Positions 8,267 to 14,587 of a DNA stretch of 23,607 bases are shown here, in pieces. The notes beneath the pieces were generated by a model. The model was not told the DNA's origin. It worked only from the letters and a program-made list of their open reading frames with translations, and did no database searches. This DNA is from a virus. Taxonomy: Duplodnaviria; Heunggongvirae; Uroviricota; Caudoviricetes. The first letter of the stretch is position 1. The number at the start of each line of letters is the position of its first letter. The stretch lies in the IMG/VR virus record IMGVR_UViG_2778261356_000013, positions 1 through 23,607 of that record; one strand, 5' to 3'. Both the position numbers and the translations under genes were made by a program.

Positions 8267-8848
8267 ATGAGCGAAAGGAAAAGAATTGAAGACCAGTATC
8301 TTCTCTATCATTTAACATGTATGGATAATCTACCTAGTATTTTAGACACAGGATTAAGATCTCGTGCATCAGTAAAAGGTGAGTTTGTTGATGTGGCCGA
8401 CGGTGAAATAATAACAGGTCGCGAAGCATTAAATTTGCAAACAATGGTTCCTTTTCATTTCTTTACTAAGAATCCATTTGATGGAAGAGTCCTGAAAGAT
8501 CATAAGGAAAAATCATTTTGTATTATTTCGGTTTGTCGGGCATTTGCCAAAGAAAATGGTTGGAAAGTTATCCCTAAACATCCATTATCCACCAGTTCTG
8601 TTATAGACCTCTTAGATTATGAACAAGGAATGGCCCAAATTGACTGGGAGCTTATGAATATAAGGGATTATAAAAATGCAGAATGCAAATCTGTATGTAT
8701 GGCTGAGTGTTTATCAAGTGTAACGGTCGAGCCGAAAAATTTCCATTGCATCTTTGTCAAAAATGATAACGAAAAAAAATATGTTGAAGGGTTGATAAAA
8801 CAACAAGGATTAAGTATATTGATAACGATCAACACTTATATGTTCTAA
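8267..8848 (+). CDS. darT: DarT-like (DUF4433) DNA ADP-ribosyltransferase toxin (193 aa)
   Basis: Motifs YHLTCMDNLPSIL, VPFHFF and C-terminal MAECL resemble DarT signature blocks (YHxTHxxNLxxIL, VPFYF, catalytic AEFLV), from recall; AT-rich; followed 4 nt later by macrodomain gene. Confidence 0.7.
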   Translation: MSERKRIEDQYLLYHLTCMDNLPSILDTGLRSRASVKGEFVDVADGEIITGREALNLQTMVPFHFFTKNPFDGRVLKDHKEKSFCIISVCRAFAKENGWKVIPKHPLSTSSVIDLLDYEQGMAQIDWELMNIRDYKNAECKSVCMAECLSSVTVEPKNFHCIFVKNDNEKKYVEGLIKQQGLSILITINTYMF

Positions 8849-8852
8849 TTCT

Positions 8853-9824
8853 ATGATTAAGTATGCAAGCGGAAATCTTCTAAACTCTACATCGCAAGCT
8901 CTTGTGAATGCTGTAAACTGCCAAGGAGTCATGGGAAAGGGTATTGCTTTGGCTTTTAAAGAAACTTTTCCCTATAATTTCGAAGTTTATAAGAGAGCAT
9001 GCGCCACTGGTACAATGAAAATTGGACAGGTTTTAATTGTAGAGGAAAAGGGAAAAATAATCGTAAACTTTCCCACTAAAGATAGTTGGAGAAAAAAATC
9101 AACATATGATTTTATCTCGCAAGGCCTTGAATCTTTAGCAAAAATTATAGACGAAAAAAAAATTACATCAATATCAATACCACCTTTAGGCTGTGGTAAT
9201 GGGGGCCTCGATTGGAATAAGGTTGAGGCTCTTATTTTAAAAACTTTTCAAAATTTAGATAATGTTGATGTGGTAATTTATCCGCCTGCAACTAACAATC
9301 AACTTTCAAAAAATAAAAATGTTATTAATGCTAAGCATCTTTTGGTTCACTACGCCTATGGAAAATTAAAAGTTAAGCAAAAATATTCCCTTTATACAGT
9401 TTTTTATATTTGCGAATGTATTGAGAAAGCAAATCTTTTTTTATTCGATTTTAAACATGGTCGGCCATACTCTTCTGAGTTAGAAAATATTATGAAGGAT
9501 ATAGCAAACCTTAAAGTTGAGTTGCAAGGAGATTTTGATGCTTTTATTGAAGATTATATTAATACTCATCAATCCAAAGAGTTACAAACCGAGTTTGGTA
9601 AACTAATCTCAACTTTAAATCCAAGTATAAGTTTTCTCAATGCTCTTAAAAATAAGATTGATTATACAGATAGCGTACATGTGATCACGAGAATTGCTAA
9701 AGAAAAAGATCATGGCTTGCATATTGACAATTTCAAAGAATATGAAAATATTGTGCAGCATTTAATTAAAAATGGATTGGTAATCGAAGATATTTTTAAC
9801 GAACTAAAAATAAAGGGAAGTTAG
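8853..9824 (+). CDS. darG: DarG-like macrodomain antitoxin (323 aa): N-terminal macrodomain plus C-terminal domain of unknown fold
   Basis: Macrodomain signature ALVNAVNCQGVMGKGIALAFKETFP ... SIPPLGCGNGGLDW; operon partner of DarT-like gene. Confidence 0.7.
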   Translation: MIKYASGNLLNSTSQALVNAVNCQGVMGKGIALAFKETFPYNFEVYKRACATGTMKIGQVLIVEEKGKIIVNFPTKDSWRKKSTYDFISQGLESLAKIIDEKKITSISIPPLGCGNGGLDWNKVEALILKTFQNLDNVDVVIYPPATNNQLSKNKNVINAKHLLVHYAYGKLKVKQKYSLYTVFYICECIEKANLFLFDFKHGRPYSSELENIMKDIANLKVELQGDFDAFIEDYINTHQSKELQTEFGKLISTLNPSISFLNALKNKIDYTDSVHVITRIAKEKDHGLHIDNFKEYENIVQHLIKNGLVIEDIFNELKIKGS

Positions 9825-10376
9825 TAGCGCTATTTTCAATTTTTTTGCTGAAATTGCGCATGCACACTCTTACGCATTATAGATGCGGCGTTAATCCCGC
9901 CAGGAGTGTTGTTTAATAAATTGAACTATTTCTGCATTGAAGGATCAACTTACGCATTCGCTGACAACGCAGGCACTCTCCTGGCTAAGCAGAAATTCAG
10001 AGTAACCAACTGGCACTTTTACAACAATTTTCTTATCAGTTGCGGCTCCATGACTTTCTGGTGGGATAACAAAGCAATTAAGGCGTGGTATTGTAAGTAT
10101 CCCGCATAATCATGCTAGTAACATTTGTCCCCCATGTAACCTAATTAAGGCAACTTCCGCTCTTCGCTCACAGTGAACCTCCATGTTTGTAAACCCGTAT
10201 ATTTCGTTTTTCAAGTGGTCATTCAGATACGGATTTTCACTTCTCTTGGCTGTGCATGTCTATGCCGCATGAATCCGCATGATCGTTTGAGGATCGTTTT
10301 TGCTGAGGCCCCCCAGAACTGGCGGGCTTTTGCTTATGTCATGCAGGTGCATGAAAACCACTGCATAAAGCGGGCA

Positions 10377-10395
10377 GGCGTGGCGGGGATACGAG
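10377..10395. other. Candidate cos (cohesive end) site of the P2/186 family
   Basis: GGCGTGGCGGGGATACGAG resembles the 19-nt cohesive ends I recall for 186 (GGCGTGGCGGGGAAAGCAT) and P2 (GGCGAGGCGGGGAAAGCAC); lies in a 680-bp non-coding stretch on the terminase/portal side of the cargo locus. Confidence 0.45.
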
Positions 10396-10503
10396 CGCGC
10401 GCTTGTGGCTTTGAATACTCAAATCATGTAATGTTAATTGTCCAAGCTCAGATGTTATTTTAGAATCGTAGTTCACTAGAACTGTGTTAATTGGGAAGTA
10501 TTC

Positions 10504-11754
10504 ATGGATAAACAACGTGCTTCACAAGTTTTTGTGCCTGGCGGTATGCCGAAATTGACTTATGTTGAGCGCTCTGAAGGAGAGGTTCATGGAAAACTGG
10601 AGAGTGCTAAAGATAATTTATGTAAGTTAGTGACTTTAACTGGGCAAACAAAGTCTGGTAAGACTGTAATTACAAGAATGGTATTCCCAGTCATGGACGA
10701 TGATGTTGTATGGATTGACGGTGGGAGTATTACAACTGAAGATGATATTTGGGAGCAGGTATTAGAAAAACTAAATGGCTACCATAGTATTGAAGTTAAT
10801 TCTGGAGAAAATAGTGCTATTGCAGTTAGTGGTAAGGTATCGGGGACCGCAAGTGCATTAGTTGTTAAAGGTACAGGTGAGGCTGGTTTAGTTCAGACGG
10901 ATGGAAAGTCAAATGGTAATAAAAAATCGCGAACGATATCCGCAAAAAGTTCTGCACTAAAAGTTCTCTCTCAAACCAAGTCTAGTCTTATAATTGATGA
11001 CTTTCATTACCTTGATCGTGACCTACAAGGTAACTTTATTAGAGCGATAAAACCATTAGTTTTTGATGGAGTACCAGTTGTACTGATAGCCATTCCACAT
11101 CGAAGGTATGATGCTGTAAAAGTTGAAAAAGAAATTACCGGACGGCTAGAAAATATTTCCATGCCTTCGTGGGAAATGGATGAACTAAAACAAATAGCAA
11201 AAGTGGGATTTCCTCTGTTAAACATGGAAGTTAGTGATTCAGTAATTGATAAAATTGCCAATGAATCATTGGGAAGCCCTCATTTAATGCAAGAGTTTTG
11301 CAAGGCTATATGCTTAGCAAATAATGTTAAAGAAACTTTGCCGAGTAAGTTAGTTATTAATTCTTTAGATGATGATATTTTTAGAAAGGTTGCAGAATCC
11401 ACTGGGAAAATAGTATTTGATAAGTTAGCTAGTGGCCCTAATCAGCGAACTGACAGAATTCCTAGAAAACTGAAAAGTGGTGAGGAAGTAGATATATATA
11501 AAGTTGTATTATATGCATTGTCACATATGAAACCAGGAATGCAAAGTATTCAGTATGAGGAGTTAAGATCAGCCATACGCGAACTGGTGCAAGATGCTCC
11601 TCCACAAGCTCATGAGGTTACTCGTGTTATAGAAAAAATGGCTAAAATAGCTGCTACGGAAGAAGCTTCAACTCCTGTAATAGATTGGGATAAGGAGGAC
11701 CGAAAGTTGCATATTACTGATCCATTTTTTGCTTTTTATCTAAAATGGCGATAA
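10504..11754 (+). CDS. Orphan P-loop NTPase, AAA+/ATPase_2-like (416 aa); candidate stand-alone defence or exclusion gene
   Basis: Walker A GQTKSGKT (aa 47-54), Walker B LIIDDFHYL (aa 162-170, resembles xIDEFQYL of archaeal-type AAA ATPases); Gly/Ser-rich insert between them; ATG 10504 with GGGAAG RBS; AT-rich; located between candidate cos and portal gene. Confidence 0.6.
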   Translation: MDKQRASQVFVPGGMPKLTYVERSEGEVHGKLESAKDNLCKLVTLTGQTKSGKTVITRMVFPVMDDDVVWIDGGSITTEDDIWEQVLEKLNGYHSIEVNSGENSAIAVSGKVSGTASALVVKGTGEAGLVQTDGKSNGNKKSRTISAKSSALKVLSQTKSSLIIDDFHYLDRDLQGNFIRAIKPLVFDGVPVVLIAIPHRRYDAVKVEKEITGRLENISMPSWEMDELKQIAKVGFPLLNMEVSDSVIDKIANESLGSPHLMQEFCKAICLANNVKETLPSKLVINSLDDDIFRKVAESTGKIVFDKLASGPNQRTDRIPRKLKSGEEVDIYKVVLYALSHMKPGMQSIQYEELRSAIRELVQDAPPQAHEVTRVIEKMAKIAATEEASTPVIDWDKEDRKLHITDPFFAFYLKWR

Positions 11755-11761
11755 AGGTTCT

Positions 11762-11780
11762 GGCTGCCAAACTGGCAGCC
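11762..11780. terminator. Hairpin between convergent ATPase and portal genes (GGCTGCC-AAACT-GGCAGCC)
   Basis: Perfect 7-bp GC-rich inverted repeat read from sequence in the 32-bp gap between convergent stop codons; no strong U-tract on either strand. Confidence 0.4.
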
Positions 11781-11786
11781 TTAAAG

Positions 11787-12821
11787 CTAATTTGAATGAA
11801 GTTTATATTCTTCGAACTGTATCACTTTTTCTTTTAACCAAACATTTAACTCTTCAAATCTTTTTTGCAATGGTATTAGTTCATTGCGTACAAATACATT
11901 ACTTGCCTTCTCCACATCCCCAAACCCCCCAACATTATTTGGCATTATCCCCATCATCTGTGGCGGCACGCGGTGTGCCGCCATCATGTCATCGCGACTA
12001 ACATTTTTGATATTCAGAAATTCATCCTTCGCTGCGACTTCTGACAACGGGATAATCTGAAGTCCGTCTTTTTTACCATTAGGCGAGTACATAAACAGAT
12101 TGCGGAAGTTACCCGGACCTTTGGCGCTTTTCATTGCGTTGCGGAGGTTGTTCACATCCTCCTGGTTCTGCGCGGCATCGGTCATGTACATGATGAAGCC
12201 GGCATGACTGCCGTTAATGTAATACTTGCGGCGGAACAGCGTGGCGGACTCGTTGAGCAAAGCGGATGGGATGGCAGAAAGATAGCCGGGCAGGCCGTAG
12301 ATCTCCTGGTTGATGTCCGGTTCCATCAGATGAAAAATGCTGCCTTTCGTGAACTGATACGGCTGGGTTGTCATACCGTATTGCACAAACCAGTAGGTAT
12401 CCAGGTCTAACCCGCGTCGGGTGTATTTTGCCAGCGCAGGCTCAAGGGCGATAACTTCACCGAATCGGTTCGTGCGTTTCTCCAGGTAGGCGTTACCAAA
12501 TACCAGATAGTCCTGTACAAAACGCGAAAAAGCCTGTTGGCTGAGCAGCGGATGAGGGATATAGGTACTGGTCAGAATGTTGCACTTTACTGCAATCGGG
12601 GAACTGTGATGCACGGCAGCCCGGAAGGTGCGCGCCAGTCCGTCAAAACTTACGGGTGGCTCGTACCAACGCTCCATCTGTACGCATTCCACATAGTCCA
12701 GCAGTTCGCGGCGGTCCAGAACAGGAACGGGATCACCGAAGCTGAATGCTTCGGCTGAAGTCTGGCTTTTATGCTGGATCTGTTTCGTCGACGCAGCGCG
12801 GTTCTTCTTACTCTTTCCCAT
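11787..12821 (-). CDS. Q: Portal protein, P2 gpQ-like (about 344 aa from ATG at 12821)
   Basis: Size and position match P2 Q (minus strand, adjacent to terminase P, next to cos side); start overlaps terminase stop (ATGA); assignment by synteny and length. Confidence 0.8.
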   Translation of the reverse strand: MGKSKKNRAASTKQIQHKSQTSAEAFSFGDPVPVLDRRELLDYVECVQMERWYEPPVSFDGLARTFRAAVHHSSPIAVKCNILTSTYIPHPLLSQQAFSRFVQDYLVFGNAYLEKRTNRFGEVIALEPALAKYTRRGLDLDTYWFVQYGMTTQPYQFTKGSIFHLMEPDINQEIYGLPGYLSAIPSALLNESATLFRRKYYINGSHAGFIMYMTDAAQNQEDVNNLRNAMKSAKGPGNFRNLFMYSPNGKKDGLQIIPLSEVAAKDEFLNIKNVSRDDMMAAHRVPPQMMGIMPNNVGGFGDVEKASNVFVRNELIPLQKRFEELNVWLKEKVIQFEEYKLHSN

Positions 12822-14587
12822 CAAAAAATCTCCACAATATTGCTGGTATTGGCGGACTCGCCCTGCAGCGGTTCGTTAAACAGTGCGTGCATTGTTGCCC
12901 AGGCCAGATCGGCATGGCTGGCTTCTTCGCTGCGGCTGGCTTCATAGGTCGGGCGGTTGCCACTGGCAGTGGTAGCGCGACGGATTGCCATAAATGACTG
13001 CGCAATGTCGGTGTGCCCGGCGTCAAACTCCAGACGGCGGTGGCTGATAATGTCGTAGGCCTTGAGTACCAGGGCGTTTTTAACATTGGGGTTGTAGACA
13101 AACTCCCGGACGGCAGGAAAGAACGCTTTCACGTTCTCATAAACCCCGTGACCAACGCCGGTTGAGTCGATACCGATATAGGTCACGTTGTACTGTTCGG
13201 TCAGTTTTTTGATGGCGTCAGCCTGGGCGCGGAAGTCCATCCCGCGCCACTGGTGACGCTCAAGAATGCGGAACTTACCACCAGGCACGGCTGGCGGTGC
13301 CACCACCACGCATCCGGCGCTGTCGCCGTTTTGCGTACCTTTTGCCGGGTCATAACCGATCCACACTTCGCGCCAGCCAAACGGGCGCAGAGCCAGTGCA
13401 TGAAAGTCGGTCCAGACTTCCCAGCTGTCCACCATGCACGCCTGCAGCTCGCTGAGCGGAAATACGGACGCGAGATCGTCCACAAACTCGCACATCAGCA
13501 GGTTCTGGTATTCGTCCGGGCTGTACTCCATGCGCAACTGGTCAAGGTCGAACAGGTTACAGCCGCCGCGCACCGCATCTTCCACGGTGACTATCTGGCG
13601 GTATTGCCCGTCTGCGCACAGCAGGCCGGGGGCCAGATTGCTGTGGGACAGGTCGATGTCCACCTTGTCGGCCTTGTTGCGCCCACGGTTGAACAGCGCA
13701 CCGGACCAGAACGGATAAGCACTGTGTGTCAGGCTGGATGGCGTGGAAAAATAGGTTTGTCGCCATTTTTTGTGAATAGCCATACCGGATGCCACTTTGC
13801 GCAGCTCCTGGAATTTCGGTATCCAGAAATATTCATCCAGATACAGGTTGCCGTGATAACTCTGGGCCGTGCGGGCATTGGTGCCGAGGAAGTAAAGCGT
13901 GGCCCCGTTAGGAAGCACCATCGGATCGCCTTTCAACTCCACCCCCACTTCTTTGGCGAAGTCGATGATGTACTGCTTAAAGACGTGGGCCTGTGCCTTG
14001 CTGGCGGAAAGGAAAATCTGGTTACGTCCGGTAAGCAGGGCGTCAATCAGGGCTTCACGGGCAAAGTAAAAGGTCGCGCCGATCTGGCGTGACTTCAGCA
14101 GGTTGCGGATGCGGTTGGTTTTTCCGGCTTCCCACCAGTGGCGCTGGTAGTTGAACATGGAGGAATGGAAGATTTCTTCCAGCTTCTCAATCTGCTCATC
14201 GGTGAAAACATTCTTTTCCGGCTGACGGCGTGGGCCTTTATTGCGGTTGGCGACGTTAGGGTTTAAGTCGGCTTCGTTGCCGCCATTGTTAAACTTGCCG
14301 ATCCGCGCGTGGCGCTCCGACTGGCGCGCCAGCAGGTCAATCTCTTTGAAATCTTTCCCTTCTTTGTGCTCCTTCATGATGAGCTGGCAGTAGCGTGCGG
14401 CGGTGGTGAGCTGCATCTGATCCAGCGGCCCATAGTCACCCCACTTGTCGCGTTTTTTCCAGCTGTGAACGGTTGCAACTTTCTCGCCCAGCATTTCAGC
14501 AATGCGGGCTACGCGGTATCCCTGAAAGTACAGCAGCATGGCCTGCCGACGGGGATCGAGATCTGCGGGTGTCAGTGTGGTGTTCAT
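12821..14587 (-). CDS. P: Terminase large (ATPase) subunit, P2 gpP-like (588 aa)
   Basis: Length and divergent arrangement versus O-N-M-L match P2 P; ATG at 14587; assignment by synteny and length. Confidence 0.85.
   Translation of the reverse strand: MNTTLTPADLDPRRQAMLLYFQGYRVARIAEMLGEKVATVHSWKKRDKWGDYGPLDQMQLTTAARYCQLIMKEHKEGKDFKEIDLLARQSERHARIGKFNNGGNEADLNPNVANRNKGPRRQPEKNVFTDEQIEKLEEIFHSSMFNYQRHWWEAGKTNRIRNLLKSRQIGATFYFAREALIDALLTGRNQIFLSASKAQAHVFKQYIIDFAKEVGVELKGDPMVLPNGATLYFLGTNARTAQSYHGNLYLDEYFWIPKFQELRKVASGMAIHKKWRQTYFSTPSSLTHSAYPFWSGALFNRGRNKADKVDIDLSHSNLAPGLLCADGQYRQIVTVEDAVRGGCNLFDLDQLRMEYSPDEYQNLLMCEFVDDLASVFPLSELQACMVDSWEVWTDFHALALRPFGWREVWIGYDPAKGTQNGDSAGCVVVAPPAVPGGKFRILERHQWRGMDFRAQADAIKKLTEQYNVTYIGIDSTGVGHGVYENVKAFFPAVREFVYNPNVKNALVLKAYDIISHRRLEFDAGHTDIAQSFMAIRRATTASGNRPTYEASRSEEASHADLAWATMHALFNEPLQGESANTSNIVEIF

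Follow-up and report, generated by a model that had tools for sequence, protein, structure and literature searches.

Introduction

P2-like temperate phages have a published hotspot for anti-phage genes next to cos, between gpA and gpQ, whose cargo includes old, tin, DarTG, retrons and others (Rousset 2022, PMC9122126), and at the equivalent defence locus of P4, six of eight randomly chosen satellites that carry genes whose function is unknown gave phage resistance (PMC13586616). The present study concerns a 23,607-nucleotide stretch of viral DNA, IMG/VR record IMGVR_UViG_2778261356_000013 (the whole stretch is hereafter called the window), and within it a gene for an AAA+ ATPase of 416 amino acids (aa) that lies between cos and the portal gene (coding sequence 10504..11754, + strand; candidate family PDC-S59 of PADLOC). 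We lean towards reading this gene as accessory cargo of a P2/186-like prophage that benefits the lysogen, most likely via anti-phage defence.

Several elements of this locus have been described before. Most PDC families of PADLOC, which came out of a guilt-by-embedding screen, have no validation (PMC12988326), and a near-identical protein, WP_000360886 from Escherichia coli UMNF18, is entered as 'hypothetical' in Table S5A of the hotspot study; in the supplementary text of that study it stands only within a raw locus list, outside the systems reported as tested (PMC9122126). A first-pass annotation of the window, made from the sequence alone, had put the gene forward as a candidate for an undescribed single-gene defence or superinfection-exclusion function; the word 'undescribed' is not supported as it stands, given the published hotspot, the table entry and the PADLOC model. 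The type of locus is known, the family is already a catalogued candidate and the protein is in public tables; finding such a gene here would not surprise a specialist. New here are the structural description, the split between solitary and nuclease-paired forms, the series of alleles that share a single slot and, at cos, the sharp recombination joint.

Results and Discussion

A cargo slot between cos and the portal gene

In phage P2 (NC_001895) Q begins 167 nt from cosL, the tQ terminator being all that lies between them, whereas the corresponding distance in the window is about 1.39 kb. The cos block conserved among P2-like phages occupies 10251..10403 (unstranded); blastn against phages matches 10251-10404, and homology to sibling prophages stops at 10403. 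Within this block, a 19-nt cohesive-end-like sequence, GGCGTGGCGGGGATACGAG (10377..10395, unstranded), followed by CGCGCGCT (10396-10403), aligns with the annotated cosL (1-19) of P2, with 14 of 19 bases plus 7 of the 8 that follow identical when counted from the alignment. The candidate cos upstream of the ATPase gene and the closeness of Q to cos in P2, both stated in the first-pass annotation, are thus borne out.

The cargo module extends from the cos core to the portal stop codon (10404..11786, +) and comprises the promoter region, the ATPase gene and a hairpin. Its right-hand boundary is the convergent portal gene, a gpQ homologue (11787..12824, -) recognized by the Pfam model Phage_portal and by the portal annotation in sibling prophages, beyond which lies the large terminase gene. 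On the left, the mosaic joint at 10403/10404 is sharp and falls 8 bp right of the 19-nt cohesive end, with sibling prophages diverging directly after CGCGCGC(T/A). Ten complete E. coli genomes share the left module (A, DinI, DarTG and cos) up to its end at 10403, and no genome with both the left module and the ATPase module appeared among the matches listed. Judging from these sequence comparisons, the cos core seems to be a recombination boundary with independently exchangeable cargo on either side. In E423, whose DarTG-cos module is the same, a 588-aa AIPR family protein fills the slot between cos and portal, and in VG12A2 this slot holds a small open reading frame (ORF) and a DUF6953 gene; because these carry different cargo there, the portal side of cos can be regarded as a separately exchangeable cargo slot. 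The ATPase gene thus resembles other gpA-gpQ hotspot cargo in lying between A and Q, next to cos (here at the right edge of the hotspot), and in varying among related prophages, and differs from it in standing on the portal side of cos as a separate exchangeable module. The AIPR protein of E423 (locus L089, 6499-8265) is weakly similar to MzaE.

Of 5426 complete E. coli genomes, 10 carry the ATPase module at full length (seven at >99% identity and three with an allele of ~70% nucleotide identity). The cos block occurs in at least 1279 complete E. coli genomes, and a combined cos-plus-portal-end probe matched 2948; elsewhere the slot holds other cargo or nothing. The gene is therefore a variable insert and, as first proposed, lies outside the canonical P2 set; a check for the opposite outcome gave no sign that P2-like phages conserve the ATPase at this site as a protein of housekeeping or packaging.

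The order cos, ATPase gene, portal gene was also seen in P2/186-like prophages of Pantoea ananatis (80% aa identity), E. coli (the second allele, 71%) and Salmonella enterica (69%), where DinI...cos is followed by the ATPase gene and then the reversed portal gene. In Salmonella, Pantoea and Dryocola, 100-140 nt separate the cos core from the ATPase start downstream of it, and the Salmonella enterica allele is indexed in 2787 blocks of an assembly collection. This one-slot allelic series (E. coli 100% and 71%, with the Pantoea and Salmonella alleles) is ready material for specificity swaps. Other settings were also found: a 70% allele in Serratia lies on the opposite strand in a lambdoid prophage, between lambda-P/DnaT-like replication genes and the YbcO/antiterminator region, and in Pseudomonas oryziphila and Vibrio cholerae the gene stands alone amid housekeeping genes, beside a Bro-N protein or a Tn5-like transposase. 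In E. coli IAI39 (locus L107, 3501-3545), as in four further genomes, all that is left of the ATPase gene is its last 45 bp, which lie beside the portal gene and are 100% identical; the IAI39 remnant belongs to a degraded prophage and is abutted by an IS3 element.

A broad family of solitary ATPases

The 416-aa ORF is real and starts with ATG. It encodes the P-loop nucleoside triphosphatase (NTPase) that had been read from its motifs, with catalytic residues intact. Walker A, G47-T54 (GQTKSGKT; 10642..10665, +), has G47, G52 and K53 invariant in an alignment of 128 family sequences, and the Walker B strand, aa 161-166 (SLIIDD, within the motif L162IIDDFHY; 10984..11001, +), has D165 and D166 conserved in at least 90% of them. 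R214 (codon 11143..11145, +) is likewise invariant in the 128 sequences and is placed by the structural model just before strand 215-219; it is a candidate arginine finger, a role suggested by this predicted position.

A phmmer search of 1.84 billion cluster representatives returned 1698 clusters (50% identity) at E <= 1e-3, nearly all of ~400-440 aa and matching end to end. A pattern scan with one genome per species returned 155 loci at 39-60% identity, among them loci from Proteobacteria, Bacteroidota, Cyanobacteria, Acidobacteriota, Planctomycetota, Chloroflexota, Firmicutes, Patescibacteria and three archaeal lineages. When the neighbours of 82 loci from many phyla were compared by all-against-all clustering of crude gene calls, no conserved neighbour was found, in agreement with the first-pass statement that the gene has no operon partner. 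Occasional neighbours include integrases, methylases, restriction enzymes, a Pycsar cyclase and AbiLi. An apparent conserved upstream neighbour, a four-member cluster, was discarded, as at least two of its members are ATPase fragments from interrupted copies (L077, L081).

The protein matched PADLOC PDC-S59 (profile PDLC05049; E = 6.6e-32, 109.1 bits), with residues 7-415 aligned to positions 6-402 of a 428-position profile, so that protein and model agree in both the full-length match and the single-gene arrangement. Since 109 bits is modest for a match of that length, a diverged branch was probably the source of the model. Pfam gave generic P-loop matches only: AAA_22 (PF13401) scored 26.3 bits (E = 1e-5), below its gathering threshold of 27 bits, and is a generic model of the same P-loop clan that was matched by 28 of 38 homologues at E < 1e-3. 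Neither PF01637 (ATPase_2) nor KAP_NTPase matched the window protein at E <= 1 in Pfam, and its insert is a polar beta-hairpin, unlike the transmembrane helices of KAP; the membership of PF01637, KAP or STAND put forward from the sequence has no support in the profile searches. NCBIfam held no model for the protein, PHROGs placed it in a family of unknown function only, and the source names of family members are all 'hypothetical' or 'ATP-binding protein'. Several 50-aa entries named 'ribosomal protein L33' are grouped with the window protein in its 90%-identity cluster, which looks like a clustering artefact.

Predicted structure

An AlphaFold2 (AF2) model built from 128 diverse homologues reached a mean predicted local distance difference test score (pLDDT) of 92.2 and a predicted template modelling score (pTM) of 0.86; it superseded a first model from 38 close homologues, in which the ATPase core was poor (pLDDT 72). 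This confident model predicts an AAA+ core, a lid and a C-terminal winged helix. In the model, strand 42-46 is followed by Walker A; then come, in order, helix 53-60 and strand 68-72, helix 79-89, a beta-hairpin, helix 147-158, the Walker B strand (here 161-165), helix 172-187, strand 192-196 with P198-H-R behind it, R214 and strand 215-219. The helical lid (aa 221-275; 11164..11328, +), delimited from the model and the alignment, contains the conserved GSPHLMQEFC and aligns with the lid of RuvB; in the order of modelled elements it takes up residues 225-272. The winged-helix-like C-terminal domain (aa 291-416; 11374..11751, +; pLDDT >90 over most of its length) ends in a highly conserved motif, TPVIDW...LHITDPFFAFYLKW, and no Pfam model covers it. 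A weak LmuA/DUF4297 match (residues 301-365, E = 4e-4) falls in a region that is modelled within the winged-helix domain.

Among solved structures, the nearest are the archaeal Walker-type ATPases PABY2304 (2qen) and SSO1545 (2fna) and the initiators Cdc6/Orc1 (2qby, 1fnn), all three-domain proteins, with up to 295 residues aligned for PABY2304 and 264-268 for Cdc6/Orc1. Both 2qen and 2fna are members of PF01637, a family that the window protein resembles at the level of fold only. The sequence identity to the solved proteins is just 12-17%, and the window gene has no replication context. Sequence searches of solved structures, with the single sequence and with the 128-sequence profile, gave matches at the P-loop level only, and a viral structure library gave generic AAA+ and clamp-loader folds only. 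Literature searches on PABY2304 and on DpnII-MboI found nothing.

The resemblance to Cdc6/Orc1, ORC, DnaA and clamp loaders, the nearest characterized folds, raises the possibility that the protein is a DNA-binding ATPase serving mobile elements as a maintenance or replication accessory, in replication, partition or helicase loading, and the same hotspot carries plasmid-partition cargo in about a quarter of P2-like phages (PMC9122126). This appears unlikely to us. The gene is present in only 10 of the 5426 complete E. coli genomes, against at least 1279 with the cos block, no associated helicase, origin repeats or partition partner was seen, and the Pseudomonas and Vibrio copies are lone genes among housekeeping genes. 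The predicted structure also departs from that of an initiator: the window protein shares the AAA+ core, the lid and the C-terminal winged helix with the Cdc6/Orc1 clade, but the model has a beta-hairpin of ~50 aa where the clade has a helical insert. Initiator-clade AAA+ proteins, which act at replication origins, are said, by Iyer in 2004 and by Erzberger & Berger in 2006, to carry a helical insert at this site; the insert comes after helix 2.

A further way of reading the core would be as the relic of a transposition module, that is, a target-selecting ATPase like TniB, TnsC or MuB. We consider this highly improbable, given that the Pfam TniB model scored 18.2 bits against a cut-off of 22.4, that no conserved transposase adjoins the gene in the ~80 loci and that the gene, standing alone, is under strong purifying selection (see below); TnsC, TniB and MuB differ from the window protein in having a transposase partner. 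Compared with the STAND, Avs and NLR-like ATPases, the window protein differs in being a three-domain protein of 416 aa with neither a C-terminal repeat sensor nor an effector domain at either terminus, and no repeat or effector domain was matched in it by Pfam or PADLOC.

A fast-evolving beta-hairpin arm

The most variable part of the protein is the long beta-hairpin (aa 95-146; 10786..10941, +), which in the AF2 model has strands at 95-107 and 132-144 and a low-confidence tip at 113-127. It coincides with the Gly/Ser-rich segment that had been singled out earlier as unusual; the segment is present, and its length is ~50 aa (residues 95-146) rather than the ~100 aa first given. The hairpin measures 46-51 aa in most members, and its mean column entropy is 3.2 bits versus ~2.1-2.4 elsewhere. 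Homologues that are 55-65% identical to the window protein over the remainder of its length share just 13-33% identity with it in the hairpin. A second variable patch lies at residues 276-290.

Compared with the Dryocola allele, the ratio of non-synonymous to synonymous substitution rates (dN/dS) is 0.34 in the hairpin and 0.054 outside it, from which we conclude that the gene is under strong purifying selection with the hairpin relaxed. Positive selection on the hairpin was considered and is not shown by a dN/dS of 0.34. Inspection of the alignment shows a mostly acidic or polar up-strand, a basic down-strand and a tip rich in Gly, Ala, Ser and Lys; the tip is short, hydrophobic and Gly/Lys-rich. 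A membrane-inserting stem like that of a beta-barrel toxin was therefore rejected on the reading of the alignment, because the strands are charged or polar and only the short tip is hydrophobic.

Nuclease-paired relatives and fusions

A Firmicute-centred sister subfamily of ~395 aa aligns with the window protein over its full length (27-28% identity, E = 2e-50) and is matched by the same PADLOC model. In all four of its lineages that were examined (Clostridioides phage ES-S-0173-01, Enterocloster, Sporosarcina and Clostridium), a gene for a DpnII-MboI-fold nuclease (PF18742) lies directly downstream; this partner has 250-270 aa, and its gene overlaps that of the ATPase or begins within ~20 nt. 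The one partner scanned with PADLOC, that of the Clostridioides phage, matches Argonaute-associated nuclease models. The two subfamilies share the N-terminal VF.PG..P..TYV.R, the DDFHY Walker B and the C-terminal DP.F.FYL.W, while the window protein lacks the nuclease partner and has a hairpin ~25 aa longer. A PF18742 nuclease is absent from the window and occurs once among 124 immediate neighbours, at the sister-subfamily locus of the Clostridioides phage. The arrangement of sister-subfamily ATPase gene and DpnII-MboI-fold nuclease gene (nucleases at L008 7209-7982 and in L100-L105), present in Firmicutes and in a 113-kb Clostridioides phage, matched no PADLOC model of a paired system.

Rare metagenomic fusions, P0124 (902 aa) and P0125 (917 aa), join a solo-type ATPase to a second, STAND-like P-loop NTPase, which gives weak ATPase_2, nSTAND and ORC-CDC6-like matches and is followed by a long C-terminal region with no known fold. 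The nuclease-paired sisters and the STAND-like fusions tie the family to conflict systems that combine an NTPase with an effector, and because the relatives pair with a nuclease or fuse to a STAND-like NTPase, the effector of the solitary form becomes a sharper puzzle. The solitary and nuclease-paired subfamilies offer a natural comparison in this respect.

These relatives bear on whether the solitary protein could be a sensor or switch only, which would detect infection and act via an effector whose gene lies elsewhere, for instance a nuclease of the host or a further gene of the prophage, or would kill by runaway ATP hydrolysis; it would then be the ATPase half of the ATPase plus DpnII-MboI-nuclease system, now independent. 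The consistent pairing in the sister subfamily, the resemblance of the fold to STAND, NLR and Avs switches and the P0124 and P0125 fusions all point that way. We nevertheless rate it as rather unlikely, since the protein shows strong conservation as a unit of its own and has no conserved partner in ~80 loci from many phyla, including some archaea, across which an effector acting in trans would need to be universal.

The homology to the ATPase of a two-gene ATPase-nuclease system also means that the window protein could act as a decoy, as part of a counter-defence role in which it would neutralize a host defence; alternatively, it might hinder P4-like satellites that use the same cos, as the gene adjoins cos, the sole region common to P2 and P4 (PMC9122126). 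Either role seems quite improbable, considering that the paired system was seen in Firmicutes and not in the hosts of this prophage, and that the solitary form is also carried by chromosomes and by a lambdoid prophage unconnected with cos or P4.

Proposed function in anti-phage defence

Against these alternatives, the reading of the gene as lysogen-protecting cargo draws on the position in the hotspot, the PDC-S59 match, the exchangeable slot, the link to conflict systems and the purifying selection; this support is circumstantial, and taken together it tips the balance slightly towards defence. Under this proposal, a solitary, prophage-borne, Cdc6/Orc1-like AAA+ ATPase with its own expression signals would protect the lysogen from other phages. 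The ATPase would serve as an ATP-dependent oligomerizing switch, whose winged helix and fast-evolving beta-hairpin arm might engage phage-derived DNA or a DNA-protein intermediate. Its ATP-driven assembly on the target could then directly block phage replication or packaging, in the manner in which TnsC, MuB and ORC coat or clamp DNA; a direct block is proposed because the ATPase has no enzymatic effector domain. Such DNA occlusion by a solitary ATPase is offered tentatively, as a mechanism much more doubtful than the defence role itself. A still bolder extension, which we regard as speculative and rather improbable, is an effector-free immunity across Bacteria and Archaea, in which an AAA+ ring or filament would form on the DNA of the phage or on an intermediate of its replication or packaging and the hairpin would take over the job of the nuclease partner.

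Several observations weigh against a defence function or against its proposed mechanism. The gpA-gpQ hotspot also holds non-defence cargo, for example partition systems and toxins (PMC9122126), and in non-phage contexts the immediate neighbours of the gene are mostly ordinary enzymes, with only a handful defence-like. A close homologue is absent from the isolated phages in the phage collection that was searched, and a literature search found no paper naming PDC-S59 or WP_000360886. The dN/dS of the hairpin indicates relaxed constraint, without demonstrable positive selection. Finally, the killing or blocking step is purely inferred, because the protein has neither an effector domain nor a partner.

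Confirmation of a defence role would raise a large family, transferred very widely, from the rank of 'candidate' to that of 'system': the family numbers ~1700 clusters at 50% identity, reaches most bacterial phyla and some archaea, and is present in thousands of Salmonella assemblies. The question would then be how an ATPase of 416 aa, whose only further equipment is a winged helix plus a hairpin arm, stops a phage.

Expression signals and other features of the locus

The G+C content across the ATPase gene is 39.2%, 35.0% and 39.8% in three 500-nt bins, compared with 51-62% in the structural genes to the right, consistent with the AT-rich character noted in the first pass. The first-pass annotation had also given the gene its own promoter and ribosome-binding site, and the corresponding sequences are present: a Shine-Dalgarno-like GGGAAG, read from the sequence 5 nt before the ATG (10493..10498, +), and a sigma-70-like promoter candidate, TTGTCC-17-TAGAAT (10438..10466, +), which is a match of the consensus scan only. 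That scan found 6 promoter-like matches against 6.1 expected in shuffled sequence, and since consensus matches thus occur at the level of chance, an own promoter for the gene is plausible and no more.

In the 32-nt spacer between the convergent ATPase and portal genes, a hairpin with an 8-bp stem, GGCTGCCA-AAC-TGGCAGCC, was located at 11762..11780 (unstranded), with a dG of about -15 to -16 kcal/mol and z scores of -2.7 and -3.1 on the two strands. The hairpin common to both genes that had been reported from the sequence is therefore present. No T-run follows it, so that its action as a terminator is not established.

To the left of cos, DinI and the replication endonuclease A precede DarTG, as in 186-like prophages, and Pfam and PADLOC identify DarT (8267-8848, 193 aa) and DarG (8853-9824, 323 aa, macro domain). 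This toxin-antitoxin defence pair is cargo on the opposite side of cos from the ATPase gene. Crossing cos, just upstream of the ATPase gene, RefSeq places a 64-aa hypothetical protein, WP_071533703 (~10269-10463; L001 7019-7213), which is probably not a real gene. Between DarG and cos, ~9981-10088 matches a fragment annotated in sibling prophages, for example E423, as an 'IS5/IS1182 family transposase' pseudogene.

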